DNA of 32,000 nucleotides from Ignicoccus pacificus DSM 13166 (GCA_025340205.1 CP006868.1:600001-632000), one strand, 5' to 3'; positions 14,457 through 25,099 are shown, counted from the first letter of the stretch. Numbers and translations are program-made. The notes: generated from the letters alone by a model not told the origin.

Positions 14457-15057
14457 ATCCTCTCTTGAACTAGCTCCCGGATGGCCCCGGGGACCCCTCA
14501 TCGATAAGAGGTATCATTATCATAGAATGTCTTCCCTCCCTCAGAAGTGGAAGAGGGGAAGGCCTGATATAGTGCACACAACCTTAATCCTACTCCAAGA
14601 CTCGTTCTTAAATATGGAAGGCCGCTTAGAGGTTTACATACATACGATAGACAACAAGGTGTATCGGGTAAGGGAAGACGAGAGGGTTCCAAAGCACTAC
14701 GACGCCTTCAAGGAGATAATGGCTCAAGTGTTAGAAAAAGGAAGGGTGCCTCCGGAGGGCGAGCCCTTAATATGGCTCGCCTATGATTCCCTCTCTGAAT
14801 TCGTGAAGGAGCACGGCGGGTTGATCTTGTTCTGGGAAGGAGGGAGGAGAGCTAAGTTCGTAGATGTGGCTAAAGATGCGTTGGAAAATGACCTTCCCGT
14901 CGGAATTGGAATGTTCCCCAGGGGCGACTTCAAGAGGAGCACGCTGAGGAAGGCTACCAGAAGGTACAGCGTAGCTGAGGGAAAACCTCTGAAGGCTTGG
15001 ACTATCGCCTACAAGCTACTCTGCGCAGCTGAGAGCTTGCTGGGAATAGACGTCTAA
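14428..15057 (+). CDS. nep1: Ribosomal RNA small subunit methyltransferase Nep1 (Emg1 family, SPOUT fold)
   Basis: Hallmark KRGRPDIVH motif, the typical VVLLESSLEL N-terminus and about 210 aa length. The TTG start overlaps the upstream gene by 29 nt. Confidence 0.85.
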   Translation: MKKLKVVLLESSLELAPGWPRGPLIDKRYHYHRMSSLPQKWKRGRPDIVHTTLILLQDSFLNMEGRLEVYIHTIDNKVYRVREDERVPKHYDAFKEIMAQVLEKGRVPPEGEPLIWLAYDSLSEFVKEHGGLILFWEGGRRAKFVDVAKDALENDLPVGIGMFPRGDFKRSTLRKATRRYSVAEGKPLKAWTIAYKLLCAAESLLGIDV

Positions 15058-15593
15058 CGCGGCTTTATGATCATCTTACACCTTCCTTCCTCCTTCAAGA
15101 CGGCAGAATGGCCTTGAGGGGTCTCGTAGAGCTCCGGCTCCCAGCGTCTTCTCGTTAATATAGACAAACAGACGCCGATGAAGTAAGGAACGGGGCAAGC
15201 GCTCCCCTTGATCTCGGCCCCTCCAACGCCCTTGGGACAGAGCTTACACCTCTCGCTAACTATCTCTATCTTTACCTCATCCTCCTTTGCCTCAATGGAA
15301 TACTCTCCATCCTTGTAGTTATACGCCTTGAAGGCATTCTCCAAGTTTTCCTTTATTGACTTACTCTCGTTGACTATGCCTTTCTCTAGCATATAGGCAC
15401 ATATCCTCGGGGTGAAGTAATGAGCTAGTAGTCCTACCGTTCCCTGGGTCAATATTCCGAGTTCATGAAGGGATCCTAAAAGGGAGGCCATCGTTATCGA
15501 AGATAGGCTAACGTCCCTCTTCCTGATTATATCTCTCGTTTTCCTCACGCTTTCCAATAACTCATCAATTCCTAAAGTCATAGAACATCCCAT
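15054..15593 (-). CDS. V4R-like (4-vinyl reductase / small-molecule-binding) domain protein with a Cys cluster
   Basis: ERCKLCPKGVGGAEIKGSACPVPYFIGVCLS resembles the Cys-containing core of V4R domains. It is divergent from the hydrogenase gene. The family call is from memory. Confidence 0.55.
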   Translation of the reverse strand: MGCSMTLGIDELLESVRKTRDIIRKRDVSLSSITMASLLGSLHELGILTQGTVGLLAHYFTPRICAYMLEKGIVNESKSIKENLENAFKAYNYKDGEYSIEAKEDEVKIEIVSERCKLCPKGVGGAEIKGSACPVPYFIGVCLSILTRRRWEPELYETPQGHSAVLKEEGRCKMIIKPR

Positions 15594-15812
15594 TCCATAC
15601 TATCGCTCGCGCTAAGTAATAAGCTGAGGTTGACCTCTCGATCAAAACTTATGCTCACGATCCTAACTTTTTCTATTTACGAACATATCAGAGAGCGGTC
15701 TCTAGTTCCTTCACCTTTACGTTTTTCCTTTAACACGCTACAAGTGCTCGAGTTACCCGTCATAACTAAAAGGTTGAAAGGTATAGGTTAGGAAGAAGCT
15801 GGGGCCTAAGCT

Positions 15813-17249
15813 TTGAGTACTCTTAAAGAGATGCACCCGAAGACCAAGAAGCAGATACTTCTCGACATGACTCTCATAGAAGGCCACATGAACGTAATAG
15901 TCGACACTGACGAAGGAATAATCAAGGACGTGAGGGTTCAAGGAATAGACTCGAGGTACTTCGAGAAGTTCTGTGAGGGCATGGCAATAGACGACCTCCC
16001 GAAGATAACTCCGAGGATCTGTGGCCTCTGTTCGGCCAGTCACCACGTCGCCTCTGCCATGGCTGTAGATCACGTTTATGGAGTCGAGATACCTCCTAGG
16101 GCCAAACTGATAAGAAGGGCCATAAACTATGGAATAATCTTGAACAACCACGTAATTCACTTAATAATGATGGGCTTTCCCGACCTACTGCTTAAGGGTA
16201 AGAACAGGAGCATGCTGAAGTTGATGACGGTGGACAAGGAGCTTGTGCAAGAGGGAATGAAGTTAGTAAAGCTAGGCCACGAGGCCGTGAGAGTCTTTGG
16301 AGGCAGGGACATCCACCCGGTAAGGGCTATGGGAGGGGGAGTAGCGAAGCCCCCCACCGAGACGGAGCTCAAGCTATTCAAGGAAATGCTCGAAAAACAC
16401 GAAGAGGTTATGAAGAAGTTCGTGAAAATGGCCCTTGACAAGCTCGCATCCGTGGAGGATCTCATAAAGTCCTACCCCAACGGAAACAAGTACTTCGGCG
16501 CGGTTGTACAAGGGAACAAGAGCGACTACTACGAGGGCAAGCTCAAGATAGTGGACCAGAAAGGCAACGTAGTAAAGGAGGTAGATCCCATAGACTATCA
16601 AAAAGCATTGAAGGAGTATACCTTCGACTGGACCTACATAAAGCCTGTCACCGTAGTAGATGAGGAGTATCCGGAAGGAGCCATAAGGGTAGGTCCCATC
16701 TCTAGGATAAACATCATAGATAGCTTCGGAACCCCTTGGGCGGACGAGCTCCTAGAGAACTTCCGCCAGAAGTTCGGAAGATATGCTTGGGACCCCTTGC
16801 TATACCACGAGGCGAGGGTCATAGAATCAGTCCACATGTTCGAAATGCTCAAGGAATTGATAGAAATGCCCGAGATGTGGGAAGGAGAGTACCTTATTGA
16901 CACTAATGGAATGAAGAACGAGAGGGGAGTGGGACTTACCGAGGCTCCTAGGGGAATACTGATTCACGACGTAACGGCCACGGAGAAGGACGGCGAAGTA
17001 GTTGTGAAGAAGTTCAACATAATAACTCCAACCGCAGTTAACGCCGCTGCTATTGAGAACGACTTGAAGAAGTTCCTCCTAGGAAAGAACTTGAAGGACG
17101 TAGAACAAGACCTCTACCGCATGGTCTCCTCCGTGGTGAGGTCATACGATCCATGCATGGCTTGTGCCACGCACTCGGTCTCTAAGGGACCGAGCATGGT
17201 AATTAGGATTAGGGAGAAGGGTAAAGAGGTAAGGGTGATCAAGGGATGA
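15813..17249 (+). CDS. [NiFe]-hydrogenase large (catalytic) subunit, group-3-like
   Basis: N-terminal Ni-binding motif RICGLCSASH (TGT at 16020), RVFGGRDIHP and EAPRG are present. The C-terminal motif DPCMACATH (GAT at 17148) is followed by a 24-aa extension. Confidence 0.9.
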   Translation: MSTLKEMHPKTKKQILLDMTLIEGHMNVIVDTDEGIIKDVRVQGIDSRYFEKFCEGMAIDDLPKITPRICGLCSASHHVASAMAVDHVYGVEIPPRAKLIRRAINYGIILNNHVIHLIMMGFPDLLLKGKNRSMLKLMTVDKELVQEGMKLVKLGHEAVRVFGGRDIHPVRAMGGGVAKPPTETELKLFKEMLEKHEEVMKKFVKMALDKLASVEDLIKSYPNGNKYFGAVVQGNKSDYYEGKLKIVDQKGNVVKEVDPIDYQKALKEYTFDWTYIKPVTVVDEEYPEGAIRVGPISRINIIDSFGTPWADELLENFRQKFGRYAWDPLLYHEARVIESVHMFEMLKELIEMPEMWEGEYLIDTNGMKNERGVGLTEAPRGILIHDVTATEKDGEVVVKKFNIITPTAVNAAAIENDLKKFLLGKNLKDVEQDLYRMVSSVVRSYDPCMACATHSVSKGPSMVIRIREKGKEVRVIKG

Positions 17250-17503
17250 AGGAGAAGTTCAAGGTTGTGATTAGGGAGTGGTGCAAGGGATGTCCCATCT
17301 GCGTCGACGTCTGCCCCGCTCCGGGAAACGTCTTCGAGATCGTGGACGGAAAGCCCAAGGTAGCTAGGACTGAGCTCTGCTTCGGCTGTGGTTTGTGTGC
17401 AGAGCTATGCCCCGCTAAGGCAATAGAGATAGAGGGATTGATCAAACCTCACAGGTTGCCTTTCAACGAGTACATAAGATCTCTTGTAGCTAGAATGGTT
17501 TAA
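17246..17503 (+). CDS. 2x[4Fe-4S] ferredoxin-domain protein (KorD/PorD-delta-like size)
   Basis: Two cluster motifs are present: CKGCPICVDVCP and CFGCGLCAELCP. The ATG overlaps the hydrogenase stop (ATGA). Confidence 0.85.
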   Translation: MKEKFKVVIREWCKGCPICVDVCPAPGNVFEIVDGKPKVARTELCFGCGLCAELCPAKAIEIEGLIKPHRLPFNEYIRSLVARMV

Positions 17504-17537: not shown

Positions 17538-17627
17538 GCCGCCGTAGCTCAGCCGGCAGAGCGCCGGCCTCGTACGGCGAACCGGGAAAGCCGGTGGTCG
17601 CGGGTTCAAGTCCCGCCGGCGGCTCCA
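17538..17627 (+). tRNA. tRNA-Thr (anticodon CGU) with a 14-nt intron at the canonical 37/38 position and a genomically encoded CCA
   Basis: Hand-folded cloverleaf. The acceptor pairs GCCGCCG with CGGCGGC and the D arm pairs GCTC with GAGC. The anticodon stem CCGGC/GCCGG carries the loop CU-CGU-A, and the T arm is GCGGG-TTCAAGT-CCCGC. The discriminator is U, followed by CCA. The intron is 17575-17588. Mature length is 76 nt. Confidence 0.9.
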
Positions 17628-17671
17628 AGCCTCTTAAATCCCTTTTCCCTCACGCTTTTGGGTACCAGTGC

Positions 17672-18652
17672 TTGTCCCTAGAGAACCTAAACGAGCGTCA
17701 GAAGAGGGCTCTTGAGAACGTCCTGAGAGCTCTCAAGGCTAACGACTACGAGTCAGCGAAGGTAATCATAGAGAGTGAGTTCGATGGGGAAACGAGGGAG
17801 GAGGTGATCAAGTACCTAGAGGACTTAGGGTACCACATATCGTTCCACTTAAAGAAGCCCGTTAAGAGCGCTGCTCCGAAGAACTTAGTAATAGTTAGGG
17901 AGAGGCCGAAGACGTTCAAGCCGATAAGCTTCGCTCCGGTCAGAATGCCTTTAACGCCCCCGATCTATAGAGAAAGACCCCTTACTAAGGAGTACGACTT
18001 AGCGCTAATCCCTCTGGCGGGGGCGGTATATTCTTTGATTAAAGAAGCTAAGTACGAGGTATTGATAATGTCTCACAAGCTCCATCCGAAGATATCGAAG
18101 GAGCTCCGAAAGCTCTCTAACCAAGGCTTGGAAGTGAAGGCGCTGCTCTCTGAGGGTTCGTGTGAGAGCATAAGGTTGCTGGGGGGAAGGAGCAAGAGGT
18201 GCTTGATCAAAGAGACCGTTAAGGGTTTGGGGTTAAGGTCCATTCCCTTGGGCCTTGCCCTCTACCTCAACTCTCCCTTCAATTCCTTGGCCGCCGCTAT
18301 AGGCGGGGTGGCCGGACTCTCCCTTCTAGGCTTGTGGGGACTGGCCTTGAGCGCCCTAGTCCTCTCCTCCCCTGCCTACTTGTACGCAGGCTTGCCTTGG
18401 GGCTTGAAGGGGGCCTCCATAACTTCCTTGCTTACCCTAGGTCTATCCTTAAGGGTGAAAAAGAGCAACGTGGAGCTCCGAACATTGGAAAGGGTTCCTT
18501 ATTCCATAGTAGTTGTTGATGGAAAGAAGGCTATCGTCGCCCACGCCCCCTTCTCTTGGAAGGGCGACGTCCTCTCGAGGGTCTACCGCTCTTCCGCCGA
18601 GGAGGCCTTGAGGGAGTTCCGGACTTTCTGGGAGGTTGCCTCTGCTCTATGA
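17672..18652 (+). CDS. Hypothetical protein with a helical N-domain and a PLD/TrmB-C-like domain (no HKD motif) interrupted by a Gly/Leu/Ser-rich hydrophobic insert
   Basis: The listed start at 17594 lies inside the tRNA, so the first start outside it, TTG 17672, is used. YEVLIMSHKLHPKISKELRKLSNQGLEVKALL and YSIVVVDGKKAIVAHAPF flank about 90 hydrophobic residues (PLGLALYLNSPF...SLLTLGLSL). Confidence 0.6.
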   Translation: MSLENLNERQKRALENVLRALKANDYESAKVIIESEFDGETREEVIKYLEDLGYHISFHLKKPVKSAAPKNLVIVRERPKTFKPISFAPVRMPLTPPIYRERPLTKEYDLALIPLAGAVYSLIKEAKYEVLIMSHKLHPKISKELRKLSNQGLEVKALLSEGSCESIRLLGGRSKRCLIKETVKGLGLRSIPLGLALYLNSPFNSLAAAIGGVAGLSLLGLWGLALSALVLSSPAYLYAGLPWGLKGASITSLLTLGLSLRVKKSNVELRTLERVPYSIVVVDGKKAIVAHAPFSWKGDVLSRVYRSSAEEALREFRTFWEVASAL

Positions 18653-22563: not shown

Positions 22564-24021
22564 TCACTCGGGCTTAACTTCGCTTGGAAAGCCGTAGCTC
22601 TCCCACCTACTCTTCACGAGCTCTACCAGCTTAGGATCTGGCTCAGTCCTCTCCGGCCATTCATATCCGCACTCCTCCTTCCACTTCCTAGTAGCATCTA
22701 TTCCCATCTTGGAAGCTATAGGAGGAGTAGGGGTTGTGTGATCCAGTACGTCGGTAACGTCGTTCTCGATTATTACGACGTCTCTCTTGGGGTCGACAGT
22801 GGAAGCTATGGCATACATGACTTCTCCTATATCATGAACGTCTACATCTTCATCTACCACAATTATCATTTTGGTGAACGACATCTGTCCAAGACCCCAG
22901 AGGGAGTGCATGACCTTTCTGGCGTGTCCCGGATACTTTTTCTTTATTGAAACTATCGCTATTCCGTGAAAGAGCCCTTCGGGAGGGAGGTTTACGTCCA
23001 CTATTTCCGGGATTAACCACTTCATCAACGGGAGGAATATCCTCTCCGTCGCCTTGCCTATGTAGGCGTCCTCCATAGGAGGCCTTCCCACTACGGTTCC
23101 GTAGTATATGGGGTCTTTCCTAGCGTACATCTTCTCTAAATGGAAGACTGGGTAAAGGTCCCTAGGGGTGTAGTAGCCCGTGTGGTCCCCAAAGGGGCCC
23201 TCCCAAGCGAGCTCCTCGGTGTCCACGTAGCCTACCAACAGCGCCTCCGCGTTTGCTGGGGCGAGTAGGCCGTTATCGAGCTCTATTACTGGAACGGAGG
23301 ATCCCTTCAGTATGCCAGCAAACATGTACTTGTCTATTCCCTCTGGGACGGGAAGGGCTCCGGTTAGGAGGGTGGCGGGATCTCCTCCTATGGCGATAGC
23401 AACTGGCATCTTCCTTATACCTTTCTTCTTGTATTTCAAGTAGTTCTGTGCTCCCCTCTTGTGCACTTGCCAATGAACCACCGCCCTCCTGGGAGAGTAG
23501 ACCATAATTCTGTAGACTCCGAAGTTGTGGACCTCCGTGTCGGGATCCTTAGTTATGGTAAGGGCGTAGGTGAAGTATCTGGAGGCGTCCTTCGGCCAAG
23601 TCTTGAAGGTAGGTATTGAAAGGAGATCTGGCTCCAGCTCCCTCTCTTGTACCGCTCCTTTCCTAACCTTCTTGGGTAAGTACTTACCCATCCCGATCAT
23701 TTCGCTTAGCTTCCTCAGCTTTCCGGTCACTCCCTCCGCTTTCCCCTTAAATGGAGCTAAGAACCTCTCACCTATCTCCTCTAAGTTCTCAGTTCCTAAG
23801 GCTATCTTGATCAATTCCATTGAACCAAATATGTTGCCAACCACCCTCCAGTCCTCATATCCCTTCAACTTGTTGAAGAGCACTGCCTTGGGATACCTCT
23901 TCCACATCAAATGCCTCAGTATCTCGGGAACCTCCTCAACCGGGTCTACCTCAACGTTAACTTCGTGAAGGAGATCCCTCTCCTTTAAGTGATCTAAGTA
24001 AGATCTCAAGTCCTCAAACAA
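22564..24021 (-). CDS. UbiD-family (prenylated-FMN-dependent) decarboxylase
   Basis: AIAIGGDPATLL and WEGPFGDHTGYYTP are hallmark UbiD motifs. Length is about 485 aa. Confidence 0.9.
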   Translation of the reverse strand: MFEDLRSYLDHLKERDLLHEVNVEVDPVEEVPEILRHLMWKRYPKAVLFNKLKGYEDWRVVGNIFGSMELIKIALGTENLEEIGERFLAPFKGKAEGVTGKLRKLSEMIGMGKYLPKKVRKGAVQERELEPDLLSIPTFKTWPKDASRYFTYALTITKDPDTEVHNFGVYRIMVYSPRRAVVHWQVHKRGAQNYLKYKKKGIRKMPVAIAIGGDPATLLTGALPVPEGIDKYMFAGILKGSSVPVIELDNGLLAPANAEALLVGYVDTEELAWEGPFGDHTGYYTPRDLYPVFHLEKMYARKDPIYYGTVVGRPPMEDAYIGKATERIFLPLMKWLIPEIVDVNLPPEGLFHGIAIVSIKKKYPGHARKVMHSLWGLGQMSFTKMIIVVDEDVDVHDIGEVMYAIASTVDPKRDVVIIENDVTDVLDHTTPTPPIASKMGIDATRKWKEECGYEWPERTEPDPKLVELVKSRWESYGFPSEVKPE

Positions 24022-24055
24022 GCTGAGACCCTAAAGGAAAAGCTCTCGGGATCAT

Positions 24056-25099
24056 TCAAAGGTATCTGAGCACCCTGAAGAACGTATCCCTTTGGGCGGG
24101 AATCCTATCGGAGGTCCTCGCATAGTGGGCGAGCTCCTCCAGGGTGGCATAGCCCTCGTACTGCTTAGCCGACTTGAATATCCTCTCGCTGAAGGCCGTT
24201 CCCACCAAGTCTGATCCTCCGAAGGCCAACAAGGCCGAGGAATACTTCTTACCATAGGCTACCCAGTATACCGAAATGTTGTCGATGAAGCCGCTGAGCA
24301 TTATCCTCGACATGGCAATGATCTTCGCGTCGTAGACAGCTGAAGCCTCGTGTTCAACTAATCCCCTCCTCTTGAGCTCCGTGTTCCAAGGCTTGAACTT
24401 CAAAGGTATAAAGGTAAGGAATCCCCCCGTCTTCTCTTGCAACCTCCTTATCTTGAACAGATGCTTTATTACGTGCTCAGGCTTTTCCACGTGTCCATAA
24501 AGCATGGTAGCGTTTGTCCTAATTCCAACATCGTGAGCTATCTCCATTACCCTGAGCCACTCCTCGGGATCCTTGGCAGGAGCGATCACCCTAAGCACCT
24601 CCTCGTCTAGTATTTCCGCCCCTCCTCCTGGCATGGCATCGAGGCCGGCTTCCTTCAGTCTCTCGAGGACCTCCCTCACGCTCATCCTATTTCTCCTAGC
24701 TAAGTAAGATACCTCGGTAGCGGTGAGCGCCTTTATGGTCATCTTAGGCCATCTTCTCTTAACCTCTCTGAAGAACTCCTCAAAGTACTCTACGGTTAGA
24801 TCTGGAACCATTCCTCCTACGACGTGTAGCTCCGTAGCGCCCAAGGAATAGGCCTCAGCTGCCATCTTCAACATGTCTTCGATACTTAGGAAGTACGCGT
24901 CTTTGTCTCCTTCCTTACGATAAAACGCGCAGAGGGGACATCTGTAGACGCAGACGTTCGTGTAATTTATATTATAATTGGCTACGAAAGTTACTACGTC
25001 ACCTACGCTCTTTCTCCGAAGGTCCTCCGCTATCTTCATGAGGTCATGTATGTCGTAATGCCACAGATCCAATGCCTCGGACGGCGTATCTGCTTGCAA
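24056..25099 (-). CDS. Radical SAM enzyme of the MqnC/MqnE/CofH family (futalosine-pathway type)
   Basis: NINYTNVCVYRCPLCAF (CxxxCxxC), GGGAEIL and LYGHVE...IRRLQEKTGGFLTFIPLKF are conserved in this family. TTG start. Confidence 0.85.
   Translation of the reverse strand: MQADTPSEALDLWHYDIHDLMKIAEDLRRKSVGDVVTFVANYNINYTNVCVYRCPLCAFYRKEGDKDAYFLSIEDMLKMAAEAYSLGATELHVVGGMVPDLTVEYFEEFFREVKRRWPKMTIKALTATEVSYLARRNRMSVREVLERLKEAGLDAMPGGGAEILDEEVLRVIAPAKDPEEWLRVMEIAHDVGIRTNATMLYGHVEKPEHVIKHLFKIRRLQEKTGGFLTFIPLKFKPWNTELKRRGLVEHEASAVYDAKIIAMSRIMLSGFIDNISVYWVAYGKKYSSALLAFGGSDLVGTAFSERIFKSAKQYEGYATLEELAHYARTSDRIPAQRDTFFRVLRYL

Follow-up and report, generated by a model that had tools for sequence, protein, structure and literature searches.

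A probable cytoplasmic Mvh-type [NiFe] hydrogenase encoded at two chromosomal loci in Ignicoccus pacificus

A 32,000-nucleotide (nt) stretch of Ignicoccus pacificus DSM 13166 (GCA_025340205.1 CP006868.1:600001-632000; hereafter "the window", meaning the whole stretch analyzed) carries a [NiFe]-hydrogenase large-subunit gene that is coupled to the gene of a small ferredoxin and has no small-subunit gene nearby. We propose that this pair is very likely one half of a cytoplasmic Mvh-type (group 3c-like) [NiFe] hydrogenase, the four genes of which are distributed over two chromosomal loci. With this, an apparent anomaly is removed: what looked like a [NiFe] hydrogenase devoid of a small subunit is a gene set divided at a divergent promoter. 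The original prediction, made from the window alone, had left open whether the hydrogenase locus was split across the genome or whether a large subunit and a ferredoxin sufficed, as a sensor or a nonstandard electron-transfer pair.

The large-subunit gene (IPA_03495; positions 15813..17249, + strand) was identified as MvhA type from its open reading frame (ORF), Pfam and Protein Data Bank (PDB) matches. Read from a TTG it encodes 478 amino acids (aa), the deposited IPA_03495 beginning six codons later (ATG at 15831, 472 aa), and the window and deposited I. pacificus sequences are 100% identical. The protein matches the Pfam family NiFeSe_Hases (PF00374, E=9.5e-33) and carries both signatures of its large subunits, RxCGxCxxxH and DPCxxCxxH, with all four Cys ligands. 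These are the N-terminal Ni-Fe ligand motif RICGLCSASH (Cys70 and Cys73; residues 68-77, 16014..16043, +) and the C-terminal motif DPCMACATH (Cys448, Cys451 and His454; residues 446-454, 17148..17174, +), between which lies an RVFGGRDIHP motif (residues 160-169, 16290..16319, +). C70, C73, C448, C451 and H454 were invariant across 23 homologues. Beyond His454 extends a 24-residue C-terminal tail (17175..17246, +), the presumed substrate of a maturation endopeptidase. The intact ORF, both Cys-pair motifs, RVFGGRDIHP and the tail had all been described in the original prediction, and all were recovered here.

Among solved structures, the closest match was MvhA (5odc_F, 270 bits), which aligned with the large subunit from residue 18 to the last residue, C-terminal extension included. 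Next came a second Mvh (253 bits), the bifurcating NiFe enzyme 7t2r (241 bits) and HoxH (197 bits), followed at a distance by the alpha subunit of soluble hydrogenase I (SHI; 113-117 bits) and FrhA (77 bits). The best NCBIfam match was VhuA, at 224 bits far under its equivalog cut-off of 800.

The partner of this large subunit was found outside the window. Within the 32 kb, tblastn with three small-subunit orthologues gave no match better than E=1.2, and Pfam scans of the large ORFs revealed no hyp or endopeptidase genes, both as originally noted. A protein search with the small subunit of a related locus (L001) as query, however, retrieved IPA_02345, a 323-aa I. pacificus protein of family PF01058 that is 69% identical to the query, and 68-83% identical to the small subunits adjoining orthologous large subunits in relatives. 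The records of IPA_02345 and IPA_03495 both give an I. pacificus contig of the same length, 1,685,057 base pairs. Over its full length the small subunit aligned with MvhG (5odc_E; residues 8-295 against 5-294, 183 bits), compared with 77 bits for SHI delta and 46 bits for the single-cluster HoxY type, and its N-terminus carries no twin-arginine motif. The alignment revealed 12 invariant Cys, i.e., a CGGC...C...C proximal motif and eight others, which as far as sequence can tell would be enough for three [4Fe-4S] clusters, the MvhG-type complement of group 3c. The I. pacificus genome hence encodes a small subunit that matches this large subunit and has the motif of a proximal Fe-S cluster, and the idea of a hydrogenase lacking one did not survive the search.

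The locus tag next to IPA_02345 is IPA_02340, a 305-aa protein (hereafter protein X) retrieved at 69% identity with a 306-aa query from another related locus, L007. We consider it highly probable that IPA_02340 and IPA_02345 form a locus B which complements a locus A, made up of IPA_03495 and its coupled ferredoxin gene, the two being ~230 locus tags apart (a distance estimated from locus-tag numbering). The split locus envisaged as one option in the original prediction is thus the one that the genome supports.

To see how these genes are arranged in relatives, we compared the component proteins by tblastn against fetched loci, which gave 12 distinct related loci from Desulfurococcales and Pyrodictiaceae; a profile scan of genome contigs with the small-subunit alignment gave eight loci from metagenome-assembled genomes (MAGs), I. 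pacificus not being among them. Broadly speaking, the same four-gene module recurs in two arrangements. In the first, the genes for protein X, the small subunit, the large subunit and the ferredoxin are colinear in this order (L010, L011, L012, L013 and L015; four Pyrodictiaceae/Hyperthermus MAG loci and one Thermoproteota MAG locus). In the second, they form two divergent pairs, X-small subunit and large subunit-ferredoxin (L001, L008 and L014). One further locus, L003, has colinear genes for X (289 aa), the small subunit and the large subunit (57% identical to that of I. pacificus), without a ferredoxin. Altogether, the ferredoxin gene lies directly 3' of the large-subunit gene in 11 of the 12 distinct loci, X lies upstream of the small subunit in all 11 cases that could be judged, and the small subunit adjoins the large subunit in all nine related loci with enough flank to judge. 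Overlaps between start and stop codons couple X to the small subunit, the small to the large subunit, and the large subunit to the ferredoxin. An all-against-all comparison of the related loci gave no further conserved neighbor gene. The original prediction had named, as grounds for giving up a special large subunit-ferredoxin pair, a canonical small subunit consistently co-occurring elsewhere and a ferredoxin lacking conserved linkage; the former was found, but the ferredoxin proved firmly linked.

Identities to the I. pacificus proteins are highest for L005 and L007 (large subunit 77%, small subunit 83%, X 69%, ferredoxin 78%), lower for L001 (65, 68, 53 and 55%, respectively) and lowest for Pyrodictiaceae (~41, ~44, ~24 and ~40%). 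This parallel fall across relatives is as expected for partners.

Locus L001 shows the divergent arrangement in full, with an endopeptidase homologue and the small subunit (326 aa) next to X (308 aa) on one side, and the large subunit followed by an 82-aa ferredoxin on the other. The endopeptidase homologue (5503-5994 of L001, +; 163 aa) adjoins the small subunit and has the N-terminal GIGNxxxxDDxxG motif of hydrogenase maturation endopeptidases, with 5ttx as its best PDB match (E=3.9e-7) and no Pfam match; no endopeptidase gene was seen beside the module in the other related loci. A thioredoxin-reductase-like gene (Pyr_redox_2) stands within a few kb of X-small subunit in the Ignicoccus-like genomes of L003 (4354-5262, -) and L007 (13330-14250, +), the two proteins (302-306 aa) being 61% identical. 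It was rejected as a module member, being absent from the other loci, and could be either a lineage-specific redox partner or mere conserved synteny.

The split itself is shared with an uncultured relative. In metagenome 3300006076 the large-subunit and ferredoxin genes lie on one contig (L005) and X and the small subunit on another (L007), the L007 small subunit being 83% identical to IPA_02345. The order on L005 (DUF2201-DUF2208-EMG1-MJ0207, divergent from large subunit-ferredoxin) is identical to that of the window. In the window, a 219-nt intergenic region (15594..15812) separates the large-subunit gene from its divergent neighbor, and this region is likely the breakpoint of the split, because the equivalent region in L001, L008 and L014 parts X-small subunit from large subunit-ferredoxin. 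Two transcription units are already present in the divergent arrangement, so that one rearrangement breaking within their shared spacer would give the Ignicoccus state and leave both units unharmed. Split [NiFe] genes have a precedent in this archaeal order, since Pyrodictium delaneyi also has the large-subunit gene of its group 1g membrane hydrogenase far from the small-subunit gene (Pyrde_0647 vs. Pyrde_0393-0395, and in a second pair of tags Pdsh_09845 vs. Pdsh_08510; PMC8105010, PMC5556600). That enzyme is nonetheless expressed and active; it differs from the one considered here in belonging to another group and in being membrane-bound, exported and respiratory.

Downstream of the large subunit, an 85-aa ferredoxin-like protein (17246..17503, +; supported by its ORF and by Fer4 families) begins at an ATGA (17246-17249) in which its start codon overlaps the large-subunit stop codon. 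It is a generic two-cluster protein with two CxxCxxCxxxCP motifs (residues 13-24 and 45-56), as expected of a 2x[4Fe-4S] protein, and a conserved C-terminal tail of ~25 aa. Fer4_7 and Fer4_10 match it above cut-off in Pfam, and the NCBIfam model of the VhuB polyferredoxin matches it weakly. The two-cluster ferredoxin with its ATGA overlap, the 219-nt divergent region and the tRNA gene that follows all agree with the original prediction. We also considered a PorD/KorD delta subunit, and rejected it on the scores of TIGR02179 and PorD_Arch (38.7 vs. a cut-off of 60 and 34.8 vs. 120) and on the linkage of the gene to a hydrogenase large subunit, rather than to oxidoreductase genes, in 11 of the 12 loci.

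Protein X is, as judged from its sequence relatives, a conserved partner that travels with the small subunit. Pfam gave no match in two of three X orthologues and a sub-threshold V4R match in the third (E=1.1e-5). Across 14 aligned orthologues, four residues of the first half of the protein were invariant, namely Cys103, Glu112, Cys121 and Cys152. The AlphaFold model consists of a tandem of two alpha/beta domains (best predicted local distance difference test score, pLDDT, 83.8; the other four models 36-61), and Foldseek linked it at high probability, with E-values of 1e-2 to 1e-1, to BcsD, the V4R-containing sensor domains of PoxR and MopR, H-NOX and the TRAPP subunit TPC6. V4R domains of the MopR/DmpR type presumably hold a Cys/Glu/Cys/Cys zinc site that resembles the invariant set of X, which we take as a lead only.

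The gene on the other side of the divergent region (IPA_03490; 15054..15593, -) encodes a Cys-rich 179-aa protein, probably of the MJ0207 family and with a V4R/Bet3/H-NOX-like fold. The V4R-like label that it was first given is supported at the level of the fold: its AlphaFold model (pLDDT 94.4) matched TRAPPC3/Bet3, the V4R protein MJ1460 (2oso), MopR/PoxR/DmpR and H-NOX in Foldseek (template modeling score 0.45-0.59, E ~3e-3). Local Pfam gave no match for the 179-aa protein itself; its L005 orthologue bears PF27343 (MJ0207), and the I. islandicus orthologue, EYM_01570, is named "4-vinyl reductase domain-containing" in UniRef. Neither for X nor for this protein did sequence searches give a solved relative, the profile matches being insignificant or spurious (designer pentatricopeptide repeat proteins). 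Both are thus alike in that their models match the fold of known V4R/Bet3/H-NOX proteins (MJ1460, the MopR/PoxR/DmpR sensor domains, TRAPPC3), and both differ from these in sequence matches that stay under family thresholds and in weak Foldseek E-values (1e-1 to 1e-3).

Of the two V4R-fold genes, only X keeps company with the hydrogenase. The MJ0207 family is small and its proteins stand alone (~170 aa, 65 representatives), and a scan with a 5-sequence alignment gave 40 metagenome loci, none of which has a gene for the large subunit, the small subunit, X or the ferredoxin near the family member. The 179-aa gene was rejected on this count as a conserved hydrogenase partner: whereas the pairing of large subunit and ferredoxin noted at the outset is kept in relatives, the V4R neighbor noted with it is not. 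I. islandicus keeps an orthologue of the 179-aa protein, and no hydrogenase orthologue was seen from this species. Chance adjacency is plausible, since I. hospitalis is reported to carry seven V4R proteins (PMC2253512). A 182-aa V4R-domain protein, Iho_1243, ranks with the most abundant proteins of that organism (PMC3149612). A profile comparison nevertheless points to a distant relationship between the MJ0207 family and the N-terminal X domain (hhalign probability 81%, E=1.3e-5), so a functional link is conceivable. Most likely, the 179-aa gene is a mere neighbor left at the breakpoint and not part of the enzyme. The commonest gene near MJ0207-family members was a roadblock/LC7-like gene (~123 aa, 11 of the 40 loci, L016-L055), and in five of the 40, apparently from methanogens, a gene resembling formylmethanofuran dehydrogenase subunit A lies nearby.

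Best matches suggest that the enzyme is of Mvh type, group 3c-like and cytoplasmic. The cytoplasmic MvhAGD(B) complex of methanogens (group 3c, PDB 5ODC) is the top solved match for both subunits, and the gene orders are also alike. In Methanothermobacter the operon order is mvhDGAB, with the polyferredoxin gene mvhB last; the order of the module, i.e., third subunit, small subunit, large subunit and Fe-S protein, parallels this, with the 85-aa ferredoxin in the position of MvhB. The differences lie outside the core: MvhD or a linked Hdr is lacking, the first gene instead encodes a ~300-aa tandem V4R-fold protein, the last encodes a two-cluster ferredoxin of 82-85 aa where methanogens have a 12-cluster polyferredoxin, and the Ignicoccus genes occupy two loci.

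Two other systems bear comparison. The cytoplasmic hydrogenase of P. delaneyi (Pyrde_1298/1299) probably belongs to the same family: one P. delaneyi small subunit is 45% identical to that of L001, and the loci of Pyrodictiaceae bear the same X-small subunit-large subunit-ferredoxin module. This orthologue figures among the expressed cytoplasmic enzymes of P. delaneyi and was detected in the proteome (PMC8105010). It differs in that its genes are contiguous, and the same paper names the two catalytic subunits only, mentioning neither V4R-like nor ferredoxin genes and giving no subgroup. The SHI and SHII hydrogenases of Pyrococcus and Thermococcus (group 3b) are likewise cytoplasmic [NiFe] enzymes from hyperthermophilic archaea, with four subunits that include additional Fe-S proteins; their similarity is far weaker (see the SHI alpha and delta scores above), and the module has no counterpart of their flavin/NAD(P) gamma subunit.

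If the four products do assemble, a plausible course of events can be outlined. Maturation of the large subunit would fall to Hyp proteins and to an endopeptidase with genes elsewhere in the genome, and the large subunit would pair with IPA_02345. By homology, H2 would be oxidized at the Ni-Fe site of IPA_03495 and the electrons would pass through the proximal, medial and distal clusters of IPA_02345, from which they could move on to the two clusters of the 85-aa protein. The latter, whether bound as a subunit or serving as a dedicated ferredoxin, would be the output module and might deliver low-potential electrons to cytoplasmic metabolism, e.g., to ferredoxin-dependent CO2 fixation. Protein X, in the position of MvhD in mvhDGAB, is probably a structural or ligand-binding subunit or an assembly factor, and this is the least certain step of the scheme.

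Several points weigh against this interpretation. The assembly of the four products is deduced from the genes, and the subgroup was assigned by best matches. Locus B is known from protein records and locus tags, and its distance from locus A is estimated from these tags. The hyp and endopeptidase genes of I. pacificus are likewise assumed, from its obligate growth on H2 and from I. hospitalis (PMC2614490), and the large subunit of L003 has no adjoining ferredoxin gene. Finally, an NADP-linked activity in crude extract of P. delaneyi was attributed to the orthologue (PMC8105010), and such an activity would need a diaphorase, which was not seen in the module.

A more far-reaching view of the same genes can be held only tentatively, and we think it more doubtful than probable: Desulfurococcales and Pyrodictiaceae would have an undescribed subclass of Mvh-type enzymes, in which a tandem V4R subunit (with the invariant Cys-Glu-Cys-Cys in its first domain) and a two-cluster ferredoxin replace MvhD/Hdr, to give a stand-alone cytoplasmic H2:ferredoxin oxidoreductase feeding autotrophy. 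The V4R subunit could then have a metal or a hydrophobic molecule as its ligand and serve to gate the enzyme or to target it, and the 179-aa V4R gene might be a recruited paralogue and no bystander.

It is rather improbable, by comparison, that the enzyme is a canonical group 3c hydrogenase, with MvhAG docking via an MvhD encoded elsewhere onto an HdrABC-like bifurcating complex and with X and the ferredoxin as mere accessories in the manner of MvhB. This would suit the proximity of both subunits to MvhA and MvhG, the X-G-A-ferredoxin order that mirrors mvhD-G-A-B and the weak VhuB match of the 85-aa protein, as well as an HdrD/GlpC-like gene (Fer4 + CCG, 354 aa) found 3.6 kb upstream of the large subunit in L005 (3279-4343, +). 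That last gene, however, is missing from the corresponding, otherwise syntenic stretch of the window, and in no locus does an MvhD or Hdr gene stand beside the module; the annotated L001, L003, L005 and L007 contained no gene for a [2Fe-2S] MvhD of the FlpD family. The conserved set comprises only the four genes, and Pfam on the X orthologues points to no MvhD-like domain.

Even less likely is an H2 sensor, i.e., a regulatory hydrogenase in which the large and small subunits signal via the ligand-binding V4R domain of the V4R-fold proteins. V4R-fold domains do serve as sensor modules in MopR, PoxR and DmpR, and each half of the enzyme has a V4R-fold gene linked to it. Yet the C-terminal extension of catalytic MvhA has a homologous counterpart in the large subunit, whereas the regulatory hydrogenases known to us lack such an extension. 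A three-cluster small subunit followed by a ferredoxin is built for electron output, neither a DNA-binding nor a kinase domain is linked, and the 179-aa family is unlinked to hydrogenases elsewhere. The listing of the P. delaneyi orthologue as an expressed cytoplasmic enzyme (PMC8105010) also speaks against a sensor.

The notion with which the locus first drew attention, namely that the 478-aa protein and the 85-aa ferredoxin alone make up a minimal hydrogenase or a nonstandard electron-transfer pair, now has hardly any likelihood left. The 32 kb do lack a small-subunit gene, and the ferredoxin gene is translationally coupled to the large subunit in a linkage that is conserved. But a small subunit with all 12 cluster Cys is encoded in the same genome and, by its presence, opposes both this notion and the sensor that was suggested alongside it; small subunits adjoin the large subunit in all nine judgeable relatives, the relative sharing the split (L005/L007) has also retained one, and the identities of the two subunits drop in step across relatives. 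A non-functional remnant heading for loss after the rearrangement is no more credible: the sister species appear to be without the enzyme and all genes but the ferredoxin are annotated "hypothetical", but the reading frame is intact with all ligands and motifs, and the same split, with all four genes intact, exists in an organism whose large subunit is just 77% identical, which argues that the split is old and under selection. An Mvh-type enzyme encoded at two loci remains the interpretation that we favor.

The large subunit-ferredoxin unit is followed, 34 nt after the ferredoxin stop codon, by a tRNA-Thr(CGT) gene (17538..17627, +; ARAGORN, Rfam tRNA 60.5 bits), which is the end of the transcription unit and no part of the enzyme. 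It is 90 nt long compared with 71 positions in the Rfam tRNA model, and on account of this difference probably contains a short archaeal intron; tRNA was the only match in the Rfam scan. A 352-aa ORF called from a GTG at 17594 (17594-18652) runs over this gene, and its true start must lie further downstream given the overlap. A repeat scan of the locus gave merely short two-copy matches without clear meaning. A 20-nt direct repeat (85% identical; 15534-15553 and 17639-17658) flanks the large subunit-ferredoxin-tRNA block, one copy falling in the 5' part of the 179-aa gene and the second directly behind the tRNA, and may be chance or a trace of the rearrangement that moved the block. Elsewhere in the window, Pfam scans identified housekeeping ORFs (an HflX-like GTPase, Lhr helicase, FKBP, EMG1/Nep1, archaemetzincin, isochorismatase, UbiD, a radical SAM enzyme, Clp1 and phosphoglucomutase). 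Two adjacent genes on the minus strand (22564-25099), for a UbiD-family decarboxylase of 485 aa and a 347-aa radical SAM protein resembling CofH/MqnC, could be a quinone or cofactor biosynthesis pair.

Annotation explains little of what these genes appear to encode: IPA_02340, IPA_02345, IPA_03490 and IPA_03495 are all deposited as "hypothetical protein", and the 85-aa gene alone is named, as a ferredoxin. Protein searches gave no named I. hospitalis or I. islandicus orthologue of the large subunit, the small subunit or X, and for I. hospitalis one uptake hydrogenase and an Ech-like complex only have been described (PMC2614490, PMC3149612). From this absence, the enzyme seems specific to I. 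pacificus among cultured Ignicoccus. I. pacificus would thus have a second, cytoplasmic hydrogenase that is in effect unannotated and does not figure in the published accounts of I. hospitalis.

As for the core enzyme, it belongs to a known kind; its novelty lies in the conserved accessory set, the split arrangement and the missing annotation. A tandem V4R-fold protein and a mini-ferredoxin emerge as conserved partners of an Mvh-type core in hyperthermophilic Thermoproteota; such a pairing is apparently undescribed, and no paper connecting V4R proteins to hydrogenases turned up in our literature search. More generally, judging the completeness of a hydrogenase from one locus fails in this archaeal order. 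Should it be true that the complex reduces ferredoxin directly with H2, the finding would bear on the low-potential electron supply of these autotrophs, and would be a useful, if modest, advance.

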